A stretch of 64,000 nucleotides of DNA from a virus. Shown here piece by piece: positions 947 to 59,263 of this stretch (position 1 is the stretch's first letter; every line of letters starts with the position of its first letter). The notes under the pieces were generated by a model, which was not told the origin of the DNA, did no database searches, and saw nothing but the letters and a program-made list of their open reading frames with translations. The DNA lies in the IMG/VR virus record IMGVR_UViG_3300045988_132388. The stretch is one strand, 5' to 3'. The position numbers and the translations under genes were made by a program.

Positions 947-2188
947 TCATCCACAATGTCGCCCAATAGCATCATATCCGTACAGTACTTTTTCTATGTT
1001 TCTCTTGTCTCTCAGCATCCTCTTTGCCGCTTCGCCTTCCCTGTACCGTTTCTTCAGCCTTACACTCCTGAACCGACCTTTCACATAGACGTACCTATAG
1101 AAGTCATCGCTGAGCATAGACAACGCCTTGCGTCGTATGGCATAGCTGTTGCAGTGGGTCATGATGCCGAGATAGCTATTGAGGGAGCATACGAAATGCC
1201 TTATTTCCACCACACTGCAGTCCTGAACCCTGCTGTTGATATAGTGTACAAGGTCAAACAGTTTCGCCACCGTGCGGTTGCCGATATACACCCTGTCTTT
1301 CTTCACCACCATACCCGTGAACTTCGCGCCCTTGTACGCATCCTGCACCATAATCTTGCGAGGATGGAGCGTAACGTCAAGCGTGCGCAGGTACTCTCTT
1401 ATCTTCGGTATGCTGTTCAACAACACCCCTTTGTTGCCATGCACAATAATGAAGTCATCCACATATCTGCCGTGGAAGGAGAATCCCAATGCCAACTCCA
1501 GCATCCAGTCGAAGTCCGACAGCCAGTAGTTGGCGTTGTGCTGACTCGTCAGATTACCGATTGGCACGCCGTGTCCGGGTTTTGATGTCTCCAAGGATTT
1601 CCCTTTGGGGACTTTATCCACCAGATCCTGTGGCGATTTCCGTCGGCATCCGTCAAGAGGGTCATTCATTATCGTTACCATCGATAGGTAGCGTAGGTCT
1701 TCTTTGTCGCTGCCATCGTAATACTTCATAATGAAGCGGTCCACTTTCTCGGCAAGAGCTTTTCTCGGTATGCTCATGAAGAATCCCTTCATATCGCATT
1801 TTAGATACCAGCACGGCTTCGTGAAATTTCCGGAGCACAGTCTGATGTCGTCCCGTAGCTGCATGATGCCGTAGAGTTGTCCTTTCCCTTTTCTGCAATT
1901 ATACGTCCTTGTATTGAACACCTTCTCATACAGAGGTTCCAGGCGCAACATGATATAGTGGTGTATGACCCTATCGCGGTAGTTTGCCGCAAAAACCTCC
2001 CGGAGGACAGGCTTGGTAACAACGAACGATATGGAAGGCAGAGGCTCGTAACATCTGTTGTTGATGTCTTCCGTCAGACTTGTTATATTCTCAAACAGCC
2101 TGATATTGAACTGTATAGCATCGGGCGATTTCGCCTTCCTCTTTATACAGTTGTAATGAGCCTTCAGTAATTCTTCTGCTTCAACCAT
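947..2188 (-). CDS. DGR reverse transcriptase
   Basis: 413 aa. Contains RT motifs including the DGR-specific IGNLTSQ (I/LGxxxSQ) and the catalytic YVDDF. It lies 31 nt downstream of the template repeat. Confidence 0.92.
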   Translation of the reverse strand: MVEAEELLKAHYNCIKRKAKSPDAIQFNIRLFENITSLTEDINNRCYEPLPSISFVVTKPVLREVFAANYRDRVIHHYIMLRLEPLYEKVFNTRTYNCRKGKGQLYGIMQLRDDIRLCSGNFTKPCWYLKCDMKGFFMSIPRKALAEKVDRFIMKYYDGSDKEDLRYLSMVTIMNDPLDGCRRKSPQDLVDKVPKGKSLETSKPGHGVPIGNLTSQHNANYWLSDFDWMLELALGFSFHGRYVDDFIIVHGNKGVLLNSIPKIREYLRTLDVTLHPRKIMVQDAYKGAKFTGMVVKKDRVYIGNRTVAKLFDLVHYINSRVQDCSVVEIRHFVCSLNSYLGIMTHCNSYAIRRKALSMLSDDFYRYVYVKGRFRSVRLKKRYREGEAAKRMLRDKRNIEKVLYGYDAIGRHCG

Positions 2189-22321: not shown

Positions 22322-23500
22322 TTACTTTGCCTTGAAGTTGTATATCGGCTTGATGCGCTCCACGATTTTTACGGTGTCGCCTATCAACGCTTCTATTTCC
22401 TTTGCCGACTTGTACGCCATTGGAGCTTCGTCGATGGTGGACTCACATACCGATGTGGAGTATATATCGTGCATCTGCTGTCGGTATTCCTCCATACTGA
22501 ACTGTTTCTTTGCCGCCGAGCGCGACATCAGTCTGCCTGCACCGTGGGGAGCCGACCGAAGCCAGTCGTCATTGCCCTTGCCGATACATAGTAGTGAACC
22601 GTCACGCATATTCAGAGGGATAATCAACGGCTCGCCAAACTCTGCGCTCACGGCTCCTTTGCGGATGATGCCATTGAAGATGTTGATATAGTTATGTACG
22701 GTGGTGAACGATTCGCCCCATGTCTTTATTCCGAGGCCCTTGATGATGGTTTGCGCCATAAGTCGGCGGCTCGTTTCGGCATACATCTGGCACACGTGCA
22801 TGGCATCATAGTAGTTGACGAGCGTGAAACCGCTGATATAGGCCATGTCTTTAGAAACGGGCTTCAGCTGGCGTAGCGCGTCGTTTATCTCGCTCTGTCT
22901 GCCCTGGGCTTTCAGTTCGGAAATGATACGTTCCCGCTCATCGCTGTTGTTGCATTGTCTTGATGCCAACTGCTGGAAATGCTTGCATATCTTCACGCCT
23001 AAATTGCGGCTACCCGAATGTATCACGAGATACTTGCGTCCGCTATTGTCCACGTCCACCTCGATGAAGTGGTTGCCACCGCCGAGGGTGCCAAGCGAGC
23101 GCATGACGTAATTGAGGTCGAAAAAATATTCCCAAGAATGCATAAATTCCCGAATTTTGCGCAACATAAGGTCAACCATATCCGAGGCTAAGGGACGCTC
23201 GTGCACGTTGAATCCGCTTGGAATATTGTCGTTGATGATGCGATCGAGCAAGGACAGGTCGATGTTGGCAAAGCCTAAATTCACGACGTGCATACCACAG
23301 CCTATATCCACGCCTACGGTATTAGGTACAACCTTGCCGGCAGTCTGAATTACCGTACCTATTGTGCATCCCTTACCCGCATGACAATCGGGCATAATGC
23401 GTATCTTGCAGTCGCGATAAGCCTCGCTCTCTGCCATCCGCCTTACTTGCTCCTGGGCTTCCGGCTCGATGGTCTTTGCAAAAATCTTTAAGTCGCTCAT
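22322..23500 (-). CDS. rtcB: RtcB-family RNA ligase (3'-phosphate/5'-hydroxyl)
   Basis: 392 aa. Carries MPDCHAGKG, VGVDIGCGM, GGGNHFIE, HSGSRNLG, HNY, APHGAGR and DEAPMAYK, which is the full RtcB motif set. Confidence 0.92.
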   Translation of the reverse strand: MSDLKIFAKTIEPEAQEQVRRMAESEAYRDCKIRIMPDCHAGKGCTIGTVIQTAGKVVPNTVGVDIGCGMHVVNLGFANIDLSLLDRIINDNIPSGFNVHERPLASDMVDLMLRKIREFMHSWEYFFDLNYVMRSLGTLGGGNHFIEVDVDNSGRKYLVIHSGSRNLGVKICKHFQQLASRQCNNSDERERIISELKAQGRQSEINDALRQLKPVSKDMAYISGFTLVNYYDAMHVCQMYAETSRRLMAQTIIKGLGIKTWGESFTTVHNYINIFNGIIRKGAVSAEFGEPLIIPLNMRDGSLLCIGKGNDDWLRSAPHGAGRLMSRSAAKKQFSMEEYRQQMHDIYSTSVCESTIDEAPMAYKSAKEIEALIGDTVKIVERIKPIYNFKAK

Positions 23501-37148: not shown

Positions 37149-37541
37149 TTAACGGTTGTCTCCGTTACCGTCAATCAAGCCATGCTGCTGACGCGACTGA
37201 AGCTTTTCGAGGTTCTGCCGGCAGACATCTTCAAGACTGAAACCAAGCACAGAACATACTCCGGCTATCTGCCACATCACGTCGCCACATTTTTTCTCGA
37301 TGTCCTTGATTTCTTCCTCAGTCATGCCATGGAAGGTCTGTGTCAAGATGCGCTCTCCGTTCTTGTCACGATCGCTCGTGCCGATAAACAACTTGCCCTT
37401 GCGGATTGCTTTTGCAAGTTTGGAGTGTAGTTCACCCACCTCTCCGCAGAGATTCATTGTCATGTAGGCGATATTGTTACAAGTAGGCATGCAGGTAGTC
37501 ATTGCCTTCTGCTGATATTCATTCAAAGTAAGATTATCCAT
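37149..37541 (-). CDS. MazG-like nucleoside triphosphate pyrophosphohydrolase
   Basis: 130 aa. LNEYQQKAMTT...LCGEVGELHSKLAKAIRKG...GDVMWQIAG is the all-alpha NTP-PPase EExxE/D-type pattern. Confidence 0.75.
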   Translation of the reverse strand: MDNLTLNEYQQKAMTTCMPTCNNIAYMTMNLCGEVGELHSKLAKAIRKGKLFIGTSDRDKNGERILTQTFHGMTEEEIKDIEKKCGDVMWQIAGVCSVLGFSLEDVCRQNLEKLQSRQQHGLIDGNGDNR

Positions 37542-37572
37542 AAACTAATTTGCGTTTTATTCAACTTTATGG

Positions 37573-38472
37573 TTATATATCAAAGTCGGGAATATATTCT
37601 CGCATTCTTCCTATTATAATTCCGCGTATCACACCGCACACGTATTTTGCGTTGGGATGTGCCTTGCCGGTAGTCTCATTGAAGCGTAGGTCAATGATAT
37701 GTTTCCACTCATTGAGGTTATAGGTGTAGGCAACCACGGTGTAAGTGTCGAGAGGTAAAATGCCACGTGCGTCCTGCGGTTGCAGTCCGGCTCTCAGCAG
37801 ACGGGTATATATCCATGAGCTGAAGCGGCAAGCTGTCCGGTAGAGGAATCGCTGACGGCGTGTACCAGCATGATACCATTCGGGCTCGGCTATCTGTACT
37901 CCTCCTTTCTTCTCCAGGTTACAGTAACGGGTACTTTGCTCGGCAATAGCGTTGGGGGATGTACGGTTGAGCTCTCGCGAGGTGCTTATCTGTGTGGTGA
38001 CAACGAACGTCATACGCAAGAGCCACAAAGCTGCATTGCATTTGGCTTTCACAGCCCGACGAATAAACTCTTCCTCGTCTATCTGGAACGGCATAAGCAT
38101 GTTCTTCAACTGCTCTTGCTCGCACAAAAACTGCAGATTGGTACTAATCCATACCTTGCTGCCCTTTACGGCATAGGATATATAAGGCGAGGCAACCATC
38201 AAAGACCATACCAGGGTAGTATGCAATTGCTTCTCGTTAGGCACGAAGAAATATGCGGTAGCATGGCGAAACATGGAGCGGTGTCCGCTTTCCCAGAAAC
38301 TCTTGCTACGCAACATGTCGCGCTCATGCAAGAAAGCCTTGCGTTCTTCGCCATCAAGACCTGGATCGGGCAGCTTGCCCTCACTCTTGTAACATATCCT
38401 GCCTACATCGGCGATATGTTGTGCAAAATCTTTCATTGGCCACCAAGCCACAGAGGGATCTATAAATTTCAT
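37573..38472 (-). CDS. ThyX-fold protein with a degenerate ThyX signature
   Basis: 299 aa. SGHRSMFRHATAYFFV and ARGILPLDTYT...NLNEWKHIIDLR align with ThyX. The signature RHRxxSxxxxSxRY reads RTSPNAIAEQSTRY, so His, the second Arg and the first Ser are not conserved. Confidence 0.65.
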   Translation of the reverse strand: MKFIDPSVAWWPMKDFAQHIADVGRICYKSEGKLPDPGLDGEERKAFLHERDMLRSKSFWESGHRSMFRHATAYFFVPNEKQLHTTLVWSLMVASPYISYAVKGSKVWISTNLQFLCEQEQLKNMLMPFQIDEEEFIRRAVKAKCNAALWLLRMTFVVTTQISTSRELNRTSPNAIAEQSTRYCNLEKKGGVQIAEPEWYHAGTRRQRFLYRTACRFSSWIYTRLLRAGLQPQDARGILPLDTYTVVAYTYNLNEWKHIIDLRFNETTGKAHPNAKYVCGVIRGIIIGRMREYIPDFDI

Positions 38473-38498
38473 ATATATATGTATCTTTAAGTTTTTTA

Positions 38499-39080
38499 TT
38501 AATCAGTAAAAGTAGACGAGGTTTCGCCAAAGGGACTGAGCTTATCCATGACAAATGGTATAGTACAGACATATTGCGCTACTTTATAGCGTAGGTCTTC
38601 TTTCGACATACCTCCATTGTTAAATATTCTGCGGTCGAATTTAATCCCCATAGCTGCATTCAGACGCTCCACGTCCCGCAATATACGTGAGAGCTTGACA
38701 CCTCTTGCCAAACGTGTTACTGTAGAACTTTTGATATAAAAGGAATATATCTGAATTTCGGGATGACGATCTTTCATGTCTATCAATCCGACTTCATCCA
38801 CAATATAGATAGCTATATCTTTCACCTGATCTACAGTAGCCCAATATTCATAGCCACCATACTGTGTATATGCTAACACCTCATCAGGATCCACATTAAA
38901 CTCTTTTACAAAATGATGCTCTCTGCCTTCCTGTTCTCCTTCACGCATAGGACGTGTGGTATAGGAACAGATAATAGGCCAGTCTGTCATTTCTGACATT
39001 ATCCGAGCTACAGTGTCCTTTCCTGCACCGCTCAGACCGGTAATTGTTATTAGTTTCATATCAATCTTCTTTATATTCAC
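38499..39080 (-). CDS. guanylate-kinase-like nucleotide (dNMP) kinase
   Basis: 193 aa. P-loop GLSGAGKDT and SYTTRPMREGEQEGREHHFV (the Gmk signature S-x-TTR-x-x-R-x-x-E-x-x-G-x-x-Y/H-x-F). Confidence 0.75.
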   Translation of the reverse strand: MNIKKIDMKLITITGLSGAGKDTVARIMSEMTDWPIICSYTTRPMREGEQEGREHHFVKEFNVDPDEVLAYTQYGGYEYWATVDQVKDIAIYIVDEVGLIDMKDRHPEIQIYSFYIKSSTVTRLARGVKLSRILRDVERLNAAMGIKFDRRIFNNGGMSKEDLRYKVAQYVCTIPFVMDKLSPFGETSSTFTD

Positions 39081-40167
39081 TCAAAAGAGCGTTGCCGCAG
39101 GTTATTCTATCCTCGTCCTCTTCCACAGAAGGAACAAAAACAATCACATCCCAACCTGCCTTGACAAGCGGTTGTTCAAACTGTTTGTAAACATCGTATG
39201 TGTAATATCCCTCCTCAGTCTGAATGCCATTACTTATAGCCTCTTTTGTCTCGTGAATAGGAGTTATCTTTACAATGAACTTTTCCTTATCAAAGAGTTT
39301 GTCCAAAACGGCAGGGTCTAATATCGTGTCTTTAGTGACAGGAAAATTCAACGTGTACTTTCTGCCGACCGGCATAGGTAAATCACGGCAAATCTCTGAG
39401 ATTTCCTGCAAAGTCAAGGATCGACCACGGAACAAATCATTACGCTGCTCTTCATCTGTAGAGTTTATAGACAACTGCAATCCGGCTTCACCTCTAAACT
39501 CGTAGTTCTTGAGTTGACAGAACTCACCAAGAATACGTTTCAGAGTTTTGCTTCCCAAAGAACCCGGAAGCATGGTCGTAAATACAGGATGGATAACATC
39601 TGCATCCATGAATACGTTGACATCATCCCTGAGATAGCACAGCAAATATATCTTGATGTTATTCCAGTTGAATGACGGTTCGCCCATACGAGCCAGATGA
39701 AGGTTGAAACGCTTGGTGTGCTGACACTCCGAACGAACGATAGCCGATATTACTTCTTCTCGCAGATCGCTAACCTTAGCATTACCGTGGAAACCGACTT
39801 TAGGGCAGTCACAGAACTTACATTTCATCGGACATCCTTTTTGAGTGGAAATAGTAACAACCATCTTATCCTCAAGATCTACCTTCTTATGGGTTACACC
39901 ATTAATTTCCTTAGTCAATCCAAGGAAGTCCGCCTTTATGTTGGCTTCCTTGCCATAGTCGCCAACATATAAATATTCAAGACATTTTTTAGTATCACTA
40001 AAAATTGCTCCAGTACGAGTCTTAGATTCTTTAATCATAATAGAAATACATATCGTTTTATTGATATTTTCAATCTTTAATTCAAATGGACGAGAAGTTA
40101 TAAAACGAGGTGAGCCACATTCTTTATACGGCACTTCTGTGATAGTGATGGCGATAGTGATAGCCAC
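39061..40167 (-). CDS. radical SAM enzyme of the RlmN/Cfr family (start uncertain)
   Basis: ISTQKGCPMKCKFCDCPKVGFHGNAKVSDLREEV, MGEPSFNWNN, LQLSINSTDEEQRNDL and a C-terminal DRITCGNAL align with E. coli RlmN CVSSQVGCALECKFC...GFNRNL, MGMGEPLLN, ISLHAPNDEIR and DIDAACGQL. The first ~12 codons of the track ORF are encoded by GATAGTGAT repeats and may be non-coding. Confidence 0.7.
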   Translation of the reverse strand: MAITIAITITEVPYKECGSPRFITSRPFELKIENINKTICISIMIKESKTRTGAIFSDTKKCLEYLYVGDYGKEANIKADFLGLTKEINGVTHKKVDLEDKMVVTISTQKGCPMKCKFCDCPKVGFHGNAKVSDLREEVISAIVRSECQHTKRFNLHLARMGEPSFNWNNIKIYLLCYLRDDVNVFMDADVIHPVFTTMLPGSLGSKTLKRILGEFCQLKNYEFRGEAGLQLSINSTDEEQRNDLFRGRSLTLQEISEICRDLPMPVGRKYTLNFPVTKDTILDPAVLDKLFDKEKFIVKITPIHETKEAISNGIQTEEGYYTYDVYKQFEQPLVKAGWDVIVFVPSVEEDEDRITCGNALLSEYKED

Positions 40168-40190
40168 CGCAGTCGGGTGATAGTGATAGC
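40139..40190. repeat. three 12-13 bp direct repeats GATAGTGAT(G/A)GC
   Basis: Copies at 40141-40152 and 40153-40164 (tandem) and at 40179-40190. They lie between the tRNA-like RNA and the body of the RlmN-like ORF. Confidence 0.7.
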
Positions 40191-40210
40191 GAAATAAAAG
40201 ATGTTGACTG

Positions 40211-40346
40211 CGGAGTGATTTTCGCGCAATACTTGCTCTAACCAGCTGAGCTACTTTTCTTCCGAAAAGAAAAGATAGGATTCGAACCTATGACCTCGTG
40301 AGACACGTTTCGGAAAAACGTATGATTCACTAAAAAGAAAACTCCG
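40211..40346 (-). ncRNA. circularly permuted tRNA-like RNA (Y-RNA/YrlA-type tRNA mimic or permuted tRNA gene)
   Basis: Order on the minus strand: ACGTT-TTTCCGA-AACGT hairpin; 13 nt ending AGGTC; T arm ATAGG-TTCGAAT-CCTAT; CTTTTCT; a 7-nt loop; AGAAAAG; TA; D arm GCTC-AGCTGGTTA-GAGC. The flanks CGGAGTTTTC and GAAAA(TC)ACTCCG pair with each other. Confidence 0.6.
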
Positions 40347-40426
40347 TATGCTATCAGTGTGAGGGTCAGTTTCACGGTACAAAACCTTCAGTCTGACCTT
40401 ACCCACCTCGTATTATATTTTATGTT

Positions 40427-41350
40427 TTACAAACCGTTGACCTCCGCATATATTCCCTGGAGATTATTAGGGATGATAATGCGCAGAGACGTTATCTCTT
40501 TGATTTCTTCCTGTTGCCACTCAACGAACATCGTCTGTAATCTCGACATTTCGGTATCGAAATTGTTTCTCTTTTCTTGATGTTCTGCATACTTCTTCTT
40601 GTATTCAGCCAATCGCTTGCTGTACTCCTTCTCGGCTTCAATGCGGAAACGATGCTCAATACCATTAAACTCAGCTTGCAATGCTCGATATTCGCCCTGA
40701 AGCTGAAAGAAGGTCCTGTTCAGTCGGTCGATGGTACCGGGTTCAACATTATAAGAGAACACGACCATATCGCGGCCTTCACCTTCTATCTCCGTAGGAT
40801 TAGCCAGACGGTGTGACACTCTCTTCAAGGCCAGAGGCAACAGTCCGTCGGGATGAATATACTTACCATACACCGCCATCTTGGTTTTCAACTCAATATA
40901 GCGGTTGCGATCCTTTACGTTCAGAATCTCGTTGCCCACCTTGTCAATATCGGAAACGGGGTCAGGAGCAACCGGCTTTTCAGGAAGAGTAATATTGTGA
41001 TCGTCAGCCCACACCATGAAGTTGCAGTCTTGCACTGACTTCAAACCTTTCTCACGTTCATTGATAGCCTCACGCAGCCAACCGATAAGGGCATTGCACT
41101 GAGCTACGCGACGTATAACATCGGGAATAGCATCAAGGGTGTCAAGAGGGGCTTCCACAATCGACGGCTGTGTATCCCCAAGCAGACGTGCGCTCTTGGT
41201 GTAAAGACGTAAGGTATCAGCCTGCGCTAAGATGCGCTGCGCATACTCTTTAGCCATGTTTGCAACATGGTTAGCAGATGTGGCTGTCAAACCTTCTTTC
41301 GCAAAAAATACTTTGTTCATATATATCGTTTTTTGTTCGTATTTTAACAT
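40427..41350 (-). CDS. hypothetical protein
   Basis: 307 aa ORF with a C-terminal coiled coil. Confidence 0.55.
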   Translation of the reverse strand: MLKYEQKTIYMNKVFFAKEGLTATSANHVANMAKEYAQRILAQADTLRLYTKSARLLGDTQPSIVEAPLDTLDAIPDVIRRVAQCNALIGWLREAINEREKGLKSVQDCNFMVWADDHNITLPEKPVAPDPVSDIDKVGNEILNVKDRNRYIELKTKMAVYGKYIHPDGLLPLALKRVSHRLANPTEIEGEGRDMVVFSYNVEPGTIDRLNRTFFQLQGEYRALQAEFNGIEHRFRIEAEKEYSKRLAEYKKKYAEHQEKRNNFDTEMSRLQTMFVEWQQEEIKEITSLRIIIPNNLQGIYAEVNGL

Positions 41351-41514: not shown

Positions 41515-42618
41515 TCAATTCGTTCTTCCATATATTTCCCGCAGTTCTTCACGTGTAAGGAAAATATCACTCTTATGACACATTTTTATGAAAGTGTTTT
41601 CTGTTACTTTCGGATAATTGGCAAACTGCGGCCACATTCTTCTTAACTCCGACTCACGACGAGCATTAGAATCTGGTGGACGGAAACGTGATATACGTCT
41701 CCACATATCCAGTCCTGCCACATGGTCAATGCTATATAAAGAAATGCCACACTTCACCCACTCTTCATAATTACCCATAATGTCAATACCTTTTGCTTCT
41801 ATCTTGCTCACCAAACGCTGAGCCTTGAGGTAAACAATATCGGGAGTATCATCCTCCCAAGAAAATTTGCGGTATCCAGGATTACAACCCGAAGCACCAT
41901 TCGACACGTGCGAAAAGGTTCGATGATAACATGGCGCTGGTGTCAGTTCCACTTCGCTTACATTAAGCCCCTTGTACGCCACGGCACCTTTATTTATATA
42001 TATATGCCCAGGATCATCCCACGAGGCAAAGCGTACACGACCAATATTGCCACACTGTCTGTCGAGCATAATACCGAAAGCAGCATACTCTTTTAGTAGG
42101 GCTTTAAATTGTTCCTTATGTCGGTCCGGATAAGCAAGACGTACTAAGCCGAAACATCCCATACCACTACACGAACGCATCAATAAGGCTATCTCAGGGC
42201 GGAACTGGCAGACCATGCGGATATTCTCGAAATTGCTCAGTTGAGCATTATCTGCCAAGTCAATGTCTATGGCGAGCCATCCGGTATGCTGCTTCAGATG
42301 GGTTTCACGGCGCGACACAGGGGCGATATATTTGCTTCCGTCACGACGAGTACATTCGTCGTTGCGTATCTCAAAGAGTCCGCTCAATGTAGCACCAGGT
42401 AATCGCTTCTTGGTTTTAATATACTCAGGCATTTTCTTTGCCTTGGCTCCATACTCCTGGCGCAGGGCGCGAAGATGCTCCACATACGGCTTCCACCTTT
42501 CCGTCAGACAAAACTCACGGATAGACATCTGCTGAATACACTCCCCTGTCTCTTGGTCTACATATCGACCTACATTGTCAAGTGCGTCAGAATATATGGA
42601 ACATATCTCGTCGAACAT
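41515..42618 (-). CDS. primase-polymerase-like protein (BT4734/VirE N-terminal-domain-like)
   Basis: 367 aa. HTGWLAIDIDL... followed by MRSCSGMGCFGLVRL resembles the hhhDhD plus sGxG pattern of Bacteroides VirE_N/prim-pol proteins. The assignment is from memory only. Confidence 0.4.
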   Translation of the reverse strand: MFDEICSIYSDALDNVGRYVDQETGECIQQMSIREFCLTERWKPYVEHLRALRQEYGAKAKKMPEYIKTKKRLPGATLSGLFEIRNDECTRRDGSKYIAPVSRRETHLKQHTGWLAIDIDLADNAQLSNFENIRMVCQFRPEIALLMRSCSGMGCFGLVRLAYPDRHKEQFKALLKEYAAFGIMLDRQCGNIGRVRFASWDDPGHIYINKGAVAYKGLNVSEVELTPAPCYHRTFSHVSNGASGCNPGYRKFSWEDDTPDIVYLKAQRLVSKIEAKGIDIMGNYEEWVKCGISLYSIDHVAGLDMWRRISRFRPPDSNARRESELRRMWPQFANYPKVTENTFIKMCHKSDIFLTREELREIYGRTN

Positions 42619-45397: not shown

Positions 45398-46303
45398 ATG
45401 GAACTACGACATCTACGATCTTTTGTTTATGTGGCGGAAACTCTTTCATTTTCTGTCGCCGCCGACCGATGTTGCGTCACGCAATCGGCAATCAGTCAAC
45501 ACATCAAAACCCTGGAGGAAGAGCTGGGATGCAAACTACTAATTCGTACCTCGCACGACATTACGCTTACAGAATACGGCGAAGCTCTTTTGCCTCGCGC
45601 AAAGGACATACTAAAGCAGACCGCCGACTGTAAAGAACATATACATGCACTAAACAACTGCATGACCGGTGAGTTGCGTATTGGTGTTGGTTCGTTTATC
45701 GCTCCATATATCCGCGAGGCTGCAATCATTTTTATGGAGCGTTACCCTAACGTAAGGCTTAATGCTGAAATGACAAAAGCCACCAGCCTGAACCATCTGT
45801 TACGCAACCACGAACTCGACATAGCGTTCACGATGAACACAGCATATAAGAATGAGGGTATTGAATCTATACCGTGCATACCCTTCCATATCTACGCCAT
45901 AATGCGCAACACCCATCCATTGGCAAAACTGCCGGAGGTGTCATATAAGGATATGCTCTGCCACAGCGTTATTATGCCGGCTGTGGGGGAACGTGTGTTC
46001 AATACCTTTCAGCAATATATGCGACACGACCTTACGAAGCTCAACATCAAGTGTATAGTAAGTGATCCTGACGAAGACCTTGCTATCGTGGAGGAAAAAC
46101 AAAGCATAACTTTTATGCCTAAGCTTTATCTGAAGAACCACCCTACCCTCGTTGCCAAACCTATTGCTGAACTAAAGACAGCCCTTATGAGTAATGCTCA
46201 CTATATGCAGGACGTGCCTCTCAAACGCTCCGCACAGATATTCCTTGACATTATAAGACAAGAAGCAATACCATATATCCAGGAATTGGAGAAAACCTAT
46301 TGA
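45398..46303 (+). CDS. LysR-family transcriptional regulator
   Basis: 301 aa. N-terminal wHTH MELRHLRSFVYVAETLSFSVAADRCCVTQSAISQHIKTLEEELG... plus a LysR substrate-binding-type C-terminal domain. Confidence 0.88.
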   Translation: MELRHLRSFVYVAETLSFSVAADRCCVTQSAISQHIKTLEEELGCKLLIRTSHDITLTEYGEALLPRAKDILKQTADCKEHIHALNNCMTGELRIGVGSFIAPYIREAAIIFMERYPNVRLNAEMTKATSLNHLLRNHELDIAFTMNTAYKNEGIESIPCIPFHIYAIMRNTHPLAKLPEVSYKDMLCHSVIMPAVGERVFNTFQQYMRHDLTKLNIKCIVSDPDEDLAIVEEKQSITFMPKLYLKNHPTLVAKPIAELKTALMSNAHYMQDVPLKRSAQIFLDIIRQEAIPYIQELEKTY

Positions 46304-58492: not shown

Positions 58493-59263
58493 ATGATAGA
58501 ACTGAATAAGATATATAATGAGGACTGCCTGGAAGGGATGAAACGGATTCCTGACGGGAGCGTGGATTGCATTGTGTGCGATTTGCCGTATGAAGTTCTG
58601 AACAAAGGCAATGAAAAAGTACGATGGGATAACATTATCCCGATAAAGCCTCTATTCAAGGAGTACTGGCGAATAGCGAAAACTAACGCTCCCATTATTC
58701 TCTTCGGTCAAGGAATGTTTACGGCACAGCTAATGATGGCAGAGCCAGACACATGGCGATATAATCTAATTTGGCAAAAAGACAGACCAACAGGCTTTCT
58801 TAATGCGAAGCGTATGCCTATGCGAAGCCATGAGGATATTGCTGTGTTCTACCGTGCGTTACCTACATACAATCCACAAATGAGACAGGGTTCCCCCTCT
58901 CATTCACGAGGACATAAACAAGGAAAAGCAAGGGGTAATGCTTGTTATGGCAACTATAATATTGAGACCTACTCAAAAGAAGCAACAACAGAGAAATATC
59001 CTATATCTGTATTGTTATTCGACAAAGAAAAGAATCTTGATATGCACCCCACCCAAAAACCTGTCGCTCTTATTCAGTATCTCATCCGTACCTACTCCAA
59101 CGAGGGCGACACCATCTTGGACAACTGTATGGGCAGCGGCACCACCGCCATTGCTTGTATAAAAGAGAAGCGCAACTTCATCGGCTTCGAGCTCAACAAG
59201 GAGTATTACGACAAAGCTTGCAAGCGCATCAAACTGGAGCTGGCGCAACCCACTCTCTTCTGA
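58493..59263 (+). CDS. DNA methyltransferase, N4/N6 beta-class (PF01555-like)
   Basis: 256 aa. DCIVCDLPYEV (a D-P-P-Y variant), HPTQKPVAL and ILDNCMGSGTTAIAC. Confidence 0.85.
   Translation: MIELNKIYNEDCLEGMKRIPDGSVDCIVCDLPYEVLNKGNEKVRWDNIIPIKPLFKEYWRIAKTNAPIILFGQGMFTAQLMMAEPDTWRYNLIWQKDRPTGFLNAKRMPMRSHEDIAVFYRALPTYNPQMRQGSPSHSRGHKQGKARGNACYGNYNIETYSKEATTEKYPISVLLFDKEKNLDMHPTQKPVALIQYLIRTYSNEGDTILDNCMGSGTTAIACIKEKRNFIGFELNKEYYDKACKRIKLELAQPTLF

Follow-up and report, generated by a model that had tools for sequence, protein, structure and literature searches.

A one-cysteine relative of RlmN and Cfr carried as accessory cargo by a phage or prophage beside a separate YrlA-like RNA cassette

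The virus record IMGVR_UViG_3300045988_132388, analysed here as one stretch of 64,000 nucleotides (the window), carries a gene for a radical S-adenosylmethionine (SAM) enzyme that is related to RlmN and Cfr and lacks one of the two cysteines that those enzymes require. The window, the genome of a tailed phage or a prophage, codes for a lysozyme and a holin as well as for a head maturation protease and a minor tail protein; among genomic contigs the closest comes from a Bacteroidales metagenome-assembled genome (MAG), and the nearest cultured relative of the enzyme, at 50% identity, is encoded by Bacteroides phage Versailles. On the same strand, a structured non-coding RNA with a permuted tRNA-like domain and the gene of a 297-aa protein lie upstream of the enzyme gene, and genes for guanylate-kinase-like, divergent ThyX-like and MazG proteins lie downstream (Table 1). 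The TGA stop of the enzyme gene is placed 1 nt ahead of the ATG of the next gene (39059).

The open reading frame (ORF) to which the first-pass annotation had drawn attention, at 39061..40167, does exist on the minus strand, where it is the maximal frame of 368 aa with a GTG start. Its closest homologues cover just 87% of that frame, however, and a homologue search found that 91 of the 120 best homologues begin with the residues MIKE and that the length of the closest is about 323 aa, which argues that the ATG at 40038 is the real start. Translation of the 43 extra codons (40039..40167) is thus improbable, and residue numbers below refer to the resulting 325-aa product unless the 368-aa ORF is stated. 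A chance ORF can be ruled out for the gene itself, as more than 6,600 proteins match the enzyme at E<=1e-5 and relatives are encoded on 585 IMG/VR stretches.

Scored as a single sequence, the enzyme falls far short of both families to which it had been likened. Its scores are 41.7 bits for TIGR00048 (RlmN; cut-off 290), 30.4 bits for NF008396 (RlmN; cut-off 633) and 18.5 bits for Cfr (cut-off 530), and the RlmN match spans residues 96-178 of the 368-aa ORF, that is, about 80 residues around the cluster motif. For the Pfam family Radical_SAM (PF04055) it scores 24.9 bits, where the gathering score is 29.5, although the cluster motif is present; by structure and motif the enzyme belongs to the radical SAM superfamily. 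A single-sequence search did find RlmN in the PDB (E ~6e-7), and a family profile of 25 diverse members, run against the PDB, matched the RlmN/Cfr core far more strongly (6fz6, E 2.4e-22; E. coli RlmN, 2e-19; Cfr 9p0p, 1e-18), with an alignment that runs from just before the cluster through the C-terminal CGQ. The AlphaFold2 (AF2) model of the enzyme, with a predicted local distance difference test (pLDDT) value of 89.5 and a predicted template-modelling (pTM) score of 0.90, points in the same direction: its nine top PDB fold matches are all RlmN (E 3e-11 to 2e-9, template-modelling (TM) scores of 0.54-0.64), followed by Cfr at E 3e-5, and many other radical SAM enzymes also match. Identity in the structural alignment to RlmN is about 14%.

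The resemblance does not extend to the N-terminus. The profile alignment begins at RlmN residue 102 and leaves residues 1-101 of RlmN unaligned, and no RlmN counterpart was found in it for profile positions 1-45. In the AF2 model, beta strands make up most of residues 1-60, whereas the N-terminal domain of RlmN and Cfr is helical (PMC2836569). The helical RNA-binding domain that lies within the first ~100 residues of RlmN appears, from the alignment and the model, to have no counterpart in the enzyme, nor has any other clade member examined a counterpart of those ~100 residues. The close clade is acidic, with an isoelectric point (pI) of 5.7. In the PHROGs collection the group is already held as phrog_24834, without assigned function, and the enzyme matches PHROG 24834 over residues 52-363 of the 368-aa ORF (E 2.7e-98, 330 bits). 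As judged from sequence, then, it is a homologue of RlmN and Cfr over the whole catalytic core that belongs to a distinct sister clade and is neither RlmN nor Cfr; the earlier assignment to the RlmN/Cfr family stands as a statement of homology and fails as one of membership.

The motif blocks that had been named as RlmN-like in the first-pass annotation are all present. They comprise STQKGC69PMKC73KFC76, in which S-x-Q-x-G precedes the CxxxCxxC cluster as in RlmN and Cfr, RMGEP at residues 117-121, LQLSINSTD at 186-194, and ITC314GN. In the RlmN mechanism a covalent enzyme-RNA adduct is resolved through C118, and RlmN and Cfr, both of which require two cysteines, are to our knowledge the sole characterised methyl-cysteine radical enzymes. 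The first of the two, the methyl carrier C355 of RlmN, is kept in the window protein as had been proposed: Cys314 aligns with the CGQ of RlmN and Cfr and is conserved at >=90% in the family alignment. The second is missing, again as first read, and its place is taken by Thr62, seven residues before the first cluster cysteine. This position is occupied by threonine in all 116 close homologues, and among 89 representatives of 50%-identity clusters it holds T, I, N, M, V, A, S, L, E or F and in no case cysteine. Since cysteine never occurs there in either set, its loss is a trait of the family and no local accident. The alignments accordingly show no compensating cysteine at the C118 position. 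It had also been suggested that the extra cysteine of CKFCDC might take over the role of the missing one. Cys78 is indeed kept in 116 of 116 close homologues and in two fusion proteins, but the position is valine or alanine in relatives at <=60% identity, so that Cys78 can be no general substitute for C118; nor does the family alignment contain any further cysteine-rich column.

The family is widespread. Members are encoded on more than 590 genome stretches in addition to the IMG/VR stretches; both sets derive largely from samples of the gut and rumen, and they span Bacteroidales, Bacilli, Clostridia, Alphaproteobacteria, Treponema, Saccharibacteria and archaeal MAGs. Scans of viral contigs with the single proteins P0126 and P0127 returned nothing; an alignment used as query succeeded. 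The enzyme genes lie in runs of small same-strand genes, as in phage early regions, and across about 210 phage and prophage loci there is no conserved neighbour, with one exception. In 14 loci from five lineages the gene directly 3' of the enzyme encodes an NADPH-dependent flavin mononucleotide (FMN) reductase (PF03358, E 4e-24), and in 13 of these the two frames overlap or abut, usually through a 4-nt stop/start overlap; the FMN reductase is probably the electron donor of the enzyme. In nine loci belonging to three lineages the distance from the enzyme gene to an array of tRNA genes downstream is under 200 nt. Of 80 phage loci in a second set, four have a tRNA gene within 8 kb and none has one adjacent, and a general adjacency to tRNA genes was rejected. 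Membership of a defence system was likewise set aside, as a PADLOC scan gave no meaningful match.

Cellular relatives have partners of other kinds. The distant ones, at about 30% identity, occur in a cassette of an isochorismatase-like cysteine hydrolase, a thioredoxin reductase (TrxR)-like flavoprotein whose CxxC disulfide is missing, and the enzyme, which in some cases is fused to one of its cassette partners; no theme emerged among 102 proteins neighbouring this three-gene cassette. The relatives that are 41% identical are fusions encoded on bacterial chromosomes, in which a membrane domain resembling the S component of energy-coupling factor (ECF) transporters, of the QueT type (30-40 bits; gathering score 33.7), precedes the enzyme. 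A homologue search with the membrane domain gave a single match. In two of the three fusions a nucleosidase domain follows at the C-terminus, and that of P0135 is a bona fide 5'-methylthioadenosine (MTA)/S-adenosylhomocysteine (SAH) nucleosidase, MtnN (223.9 bits against a cut-off of 169). Such nucleosidases clear both SAH and 5'-deoxyadenosine, the by-products of RlmN-type chemistry.

Some phages carry the enzyme in two pieces. Three such phages are the crAss-like Kehishuvirus tikkala, Moorella phage MTATph1 and Pectobacterium phage Wc4, each with a core ORF that stops after the K.SP.N block and a separate ORF of 40-60 aa that supplies GF....V....AACGQ(L/V). The survival of this loop as an ORF of its own in three cultured phages argues that the cysteine is functionally essential. 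Other phages, such as Vibrio phage 496E54-1 and Salmonella phage Arash, encode short RlmN-like proteins of about 300 aa that are 23-26% identical to the window protein and keep both cysteines, in TVMC(I/V)STQ.GC and GCGQLW, and by virtue of these two residues are closer to canonical RlmN chemistry. Together with the split genes they indicate that phages carry at least three RlmN-derived forms: two-cysteine, one-cysteine and split one-cysteine. The RlmN-like gene of Vibrio phage 496E54-1 is preceded by annotated genes of the ribose-phosphate diphosphokinase and nicotinate phosphoribosyltransferase families, of the nicotinamide adenine dinucleotide (NAD) salvage type. A search of the literature found no characterised phage RlmN-like enzyme and no paper characterising the clade.

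The reading that we tentatively prefer, with a probability of about 0.4, is that the window protein is a stand-alone accessory enzyme of a large one-cysteine sister clade of RlmN and Cfr, which would retain methyl-cysteine chemistry, resolve it in another way and act on a substrate supplied by the host. The radical SAM core, the cysteine loop and the flavoprotein partners together suggest a [4Fe-4S]/SAM enzyme reduced by a flavoprotein. The cluster would receive its electrons from the phage FMN reductase in several lineages and otherwise from a host flavodoxin. SAM would be used twice, as in RlmN, the first molecule methylating Cys314 to leave SAH, and the second giving the 5'-deoxyadenosyl radical that would activate the Cys314 methyl group for addition to the substrate. 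Since there is no second cysteine, the adduct would have to be resolved otherwise, perhaps by another base together with an electron from the reductase or by a different acceptor chemistry. The MtnN fusion fits such two-SAM chemistry, though it is no proof of it. As to the substrate, our guess would be a ubiquitous host-supplied molecule, a purine-type nucleoside or metabolite rather than RNA, and not the neighbouring RNA; a small host-supplied substrate seems somewhat likelier than RNA because a counterpart of the RlmN N-terminal domain is lacking, the pI is 5.7 and the partners are transporter-like proteins or hydrolases.

Several considerations tell against this reading. The fusion proteins are rare (four representative clusters) and their membrane domain is, at the scores given above, only marginally QueT-like, while an MtnN domain is useful to any radical SAM enzyme and so does not prove the use of two SAM molecules. 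Residues R199, R226 and K257 and the CGQ loop are common to RlmN, and an adenine in a nucleic acid could equally well be the substrate. The tRNA arrays in three lineages, and YrlA-like RNAs within a few kilobases in two, may also leave room for a link to RNA. Finally, Cys314 could act as a hydrogen-atom donor instead of a methyl carrier.

Two of these points lead to full alternatives. In one of them, which is unlikely but has to be taken seriously, the enzyme is a true RNA methyltransferase that acts without a second cysteine on A37 of host or phage tRNA or on A2503 of 23S rRNA, and thereby tunes translation or shields RNA from nucleases or antibiotics. RlmN and Cfr are, after all, its closest homologues in sequence and fold, and a universal target would suit a gene spread over phages of many host phyla without phage-encoded partners; the tRNA arrays lie close downstream in their nine loci, and the window itself also has RtcB, a tRNA-Met gene and the tRNA-like RNA. 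Yet the cysteine that all members lack is essential in the known enzymes: the C105A variant of Cfr loses function, C105 being essential for resistance (PMC2836569), and the titles of PDB entries among the fold matches record C118A RlmN cross-linked to tRNA. The missing counterpart of the first ~100 residues of RlmN, RNA-binding domain included, the paucity of tRNA genes around the second set of 80 loci, and the fusion or pairing of cellular relatives with a transporter-like membrane domain or a small-molecule hydrolase all argue in the same direction.

The other alternative, which we consider rather unlikely, dispenses with methyl transfer altogether. The 5'-deoxyadenosyl radical would take a hydrogen from the substrate, Cys314 would return one, and the flavoprotein would re-reduce the enzyme, as in a lyase, isomerase or reductase. 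One conserved cysteine and a dedicated reductase suit such a scheme, the loss of C118 would be expected if no covalent adduct forms, and the MtnN fusion is equally well explained by removal of 5'-deoxyadenosine. Against this, the cysteine sits in the same CGQ loop as the methyl carrier of RlmN, and the exact AACGQL of the split forms suggests that the ancestral role has been kept.

A broader proposal, which goes beyond the preferred reading and is doubtful, is that the one-cysteine proteins constitute a new mechanistic class of radical SAM enzymes, in which a methyl-cysteine-derived radical gives an adduct that is either resolved or deliberately kept without a second cysteine, the cysteine loop being supplied in trans in some phages as a peptide of 40-60 aa. 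Phages infecting many host phyla would direct the enzyme at a target universal in hosts, for instance an adenine in tRNA, rRNA, a metabolite or a signal, and the purpose would be host takeover or counter-defence.

Gene order bears on two further explanations, in which the function of the enzyme is sought in its neighbours. In the window the order runs primase, 297-aa gene, RNA, enzyme. In the closest relatives (L085-L088, enzyme 92-93% identical) the enzyme gene comes straight after the primase gene and is followed by the kinase, ThyX and MazG genes; the 297-aa gene and the RNA are both missing. In L002 and L089, where the enzyme is 75% identical, the order is primase, enzyme, 297-aa gene and RNA, followed in L089 by the kinase and ThyX genes. 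In L252-L254 the primase gene is followed by the 297-aa gene, a YrlA-like RNA (30.1 bits) and the kinase, ThyX and MazG genes, and the enzyme is absent from that position. These four arrangements imply that the enzyme on the one hand, and the RNA with its gene on the other, are two independent cargo modules of one variable spot. The enzyme gene is cargo in this spot, which the primase gene borders on one side and the nucleotide-metabolism genes on the other, and its gain or loss is independent of the RNA cassette.

It is therefore improbable that the enzyme belongs to a pathway of DNA or nucleotide modification, such as C-methylation of purine deoxynucleotides, together with the kinase, the ThyX-like protein and MazG. 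The operon arrangement with its 1-nt spacing to the kinase gene speaks for it, as does the usual location of the enzyme in replication, nucleotide-metabolism or DNA-methylase modules. However, the kinase-ThyX-MazG block stands without the enzyme at that position in L252-L254, none of its three genes was found near the enzyme in 79 bacterial and archaeal genome loci and one Bacteroides phage locus, and the window was not found to encode TGT/DpdA or any other base-exchange enzyme; moreover, 2- or 8-methyl-adenine is expected to pair poorly in duplex DNA. A hypermodification cluster for thymidine or purine built from the same block was rejected, the block being independent of the enzyme, and M6 gp53, the known radical SAM enzyme that modifies DNA, resembles spore photoproduct lyase, not RlmN. 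The ThyX-like protein of the block scores 54.5 bits against a cut-off of 87.9, and its RHR...S....S.R motif reads LNRTSPNAIAEQSTRY, so it may be no ordinary thymidylate synthase.

The same gene orders bear on the idea, put forward in the first-pass annotation, that the neighbouring RNA is a dedicated substrate or decoy of the enzyme, to which the role of a guide may be added. The two do adjoin each other on the same strand, with the enzyme directly downstream of the RNA as had been described; what had been taken for a tRNA mimic is, though, a YrlA-like Y RNA, below the scoring threshold, of a separate cassette. A search of 165 enzyme loci with a strict pattern for the permuted tRNA domain found such an RNA near the enzyme in four, the window included, and in two lineages. 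The only case outside the window's own lineage is L011, an unrelated Clostridia prophage with a YrlA-like RNA (37.5 bits) 3.2 kb from the enzyme; an apparent further case, L157, proved to be two adjacent tRNA genes. Beyond this rarity, the enzyme occurs without the RNA in its closest relatives, the RNA and the 297-aa gene occur without the enzyme at that position in L252-L254, and the order is swapped in L002 and L089. YrlA-type tRNA-like domains, furthermore, have no anticodon loop (PMC4201824) and hence no A37. A functional link between enzyme and RNA, largely refuted by these gene-order data, is very hard to credit.

The RNA merits description in its own right. It matches the Rfam model RF02553 (YrlA) over the full length of that model, within the core given in Table 1, at 33.6 bits (E 1.6e-5; gathering score 69). 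Its arms are arranged as a T arm, ATAGG-TTCGAAT-CCTAT, followed by the 3' strand of the acceptor, a short loop and the complementary 5' strand, and then, after the acceptor, by TA and a D arm, GCTC-AGCTGGTTA-GAGC; the permuted arrangement of YrlA has the same order (PMC4201824). A 14-nt terminal inverted repeat (40404-40417 / 40099-40112) encloses about 320 nt, as would be expected of a Y RNA closed by its two ends, and the fold z-score is -2.4. The sequence GGYGATAGTGATAGC, which on the coding strand reads ATCACTATC, occurs as three direct repeats at 40138-40190, between the tRNA-like core and the start of the enzyme gene; the repeats are partly conserved in L089. Domain scans of the 67 predicted window proteins found no Ro60/Rsr (TROVE) protein. 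The window does encode an RtcB RNA ligase (22322-23500, minus strand; Pfam E 2e-62, with an HSGSR motif), 16 kb from the RNA. In Salmonella, RtcB, Ro60 and YrlA are encoded in one operon.

Homologues of the RNA are present in L002, L089 and L252, and its pairing with the 297-aa gene is kept in L002, L089 and L252-L254. The gene and the ~320-nt RNA are a mobile cassette (40099-41320, minus strand). The 297-aa protein, which is mainly helical and has 366 homologues, contains no Pfam domain, and its AF2 model (pLDDT 79.7) has no significant fold match in the PDB. In the region 2398-7999 of L248 a distant homologue is encoded amid seven tRNA genes and genes for Macro-domain and YAcAr-domain proteins, surroundings that suggest a link of the 297-aa family to tRNA biology.

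That the enzyme might act in queuosine-precursor salvage, as a non-orthologous queuine lyase or otherwise, can be dismissed almost entirely: the fusion of its 41%-identity relatives to a QueT-like ECF S component, and in two of the three also to a nucleosidase domain, does mirror the queK-qrtT-queL cluster of C. difficile (PMC11130926, PMC9210968), but QueL (6p78) is a different radical SAM enzyme of 230 aa that ranks 22nd in the fold search (E 1.8e-3, TM 0.39) and gives no sequence match at E<=10 with the single sequence or at E<=1 with the profile, the nucleosidase domain proved to be MtnN, and searches found neither a preQ1 riboswitch upstream of the fusion gene nor TGT/DpdA in the window. 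Orthology to queuine lyase was ruled out on the same grounds.

Table 1. Coordinates of the features discussed, in the window and in related loci.
Feature	Locus	Position	Strand	Remarks
Radical SAM gene	window	39061..40038	minus	325 aa; one-Cys RlmN/Cfr-like clade, PHROG 24834
Upstream stretch of the maximal GTG ORF	window	40039..40167	minus	overlaps 3' part of the non-coding RNA and the direct repeats
CxxxCxxC [4Fe-4S]/SAM motif, C69/C73/C76	window	39811..39834	minus	(near-)invariant in family alignment
Thr62	window	39853..39855	minus	RlmN C118 / Cfr C105 position; aligned to C118 by family profile
Cys78	window	39805..39807	minus	extra Cys of CKFCDC; kept in close clade
Cys314 in ITCGN	window	39097..39099	minus	RlmN C355 equivalent (AACGQL); family-profile alignment
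Structured non-coding RNA	window	40099..40417	minus	YrlA-like permuted tRNA domain; core 40205-40316
297-aa mainly helical protein	window	40427..41320	minus	pairs with YrlA-like RNA
Primase-like gene	window	41515..42618	minus	BT4734-like N domain and PriCT_2; left border of variable cargo spot
Downstream block in this phage group	window	37149..39059	minus	guanylate-kinase-like, divergent ThyX-like and MazG genes
Guanylate-kinase-like gene	window	38499-39059	minus	directly 3' of enzyme gene
Divergent ThyX-like gene	window	37573-38472	minus	between guanylate-kinase-like and MazG genes
MazG gene	window	37149-37541	minus	end of kinase-ThyX-MazG block
Small Cys-loop ORF	L081	6099-6281		separate from core ORF
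Small Cys-loop ORF	L166	4670-4792		separate from core ORF
Small Cys-loop ORF	L167	4633-4764		separate from core ORF
Two-Cys RlmN-like genes	L082; L165	4914-5840; 3893-4822		Vibrio phage 496E54-1 / Salmonella phage Arash
FMN reductase gene	L128-L140, L003, L094, L095, L099, L104, L106			directly 3' of enzyme

Elsewhere the window holds a reverse transcriptase gene (947-2188, minus strand; RVT_1, YVDD motif) and, within 83-34589, a bAvd-like gene, which together suggest a diversity-generating retroelement. A LysR-type transcriptional regulator (HTH_1 and LysR_substrate) is encoded in the phage region at 45398-46303 on the plus strand, and there are also genes for a PAPS-reductase-like protein and an N6/N4 DNA methylase (58493-59263), and a weak Sua5/YrdC-like match.

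The wider interest of the enzyme lies in its clade. A group thousands strong that keeps the methyl carrier only, and that includes split genes and members with flavin reductases of their own, points to a variation on methyl-cysteine chemistry or to a new class of substrate. Since phages and prophages of Bacteroidota, Firmicutes, Alphaproteobacteria and others in gut and rumen very commonly carry the gene, its product could represent a modification of host RNA, DNA or metabolites that is driven by phages and is widespread yet unrecognised. The tempting story of a tRNA mimic and its modifying enzyme, on the other hand, is removed, as the Y RNA with its tRNA-like domain is part of another mobile cassette.

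Compared with known systems, QueL (6p78) resembles the window protein in being a radical SAM enzyme with ECF S and nucleosidase partners such as those of the window protein's relatives, and differs in being smaller and in belonging to a separate radical SAM family, the fold match being a generic one. The RNA shares with YrlA and other bacterial Y RNAs the permuted T arm, the closed acceptor stem and the D arm inside a long end-to-end stem; it differs in its sub-threshold score (33.6 against 69), in being paired with a 297-aa helical protein and in the absence of a Ro60/Rsr gene among those found in the window. Cfr, the 23S rRNA A2503 C8-methyltransferase of antibiotic resistance, has a common fold with the enzyme, a two-SAM architecture and a profile match at E 1e-18, whereas the enzyme has no equivalent of C105 and scores 18.5 bits against 530. 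RlmN, the dual-specificity C2-methyl synthase of 23S rRNA A2503 and tRNA A37, remains the closest comparison: it is the best structural match (TM ~0.6) and has the same radical SAM core with SxQxGCxxxCxxC, the same order of the MGEP..N, S.(H/N)., R, K..P.N and C-terminal CGQ blocks, and a methyl carrier, C355, with which Cys314 aligns. The window enzyme departs from it in that every member of its clade examined is without a cysteine at the C118 position, that about 55 mostly beta-strand residues replace the first ~100 of RlmN, and that its gene is phage-borne cargo with flavin-reductase partners.

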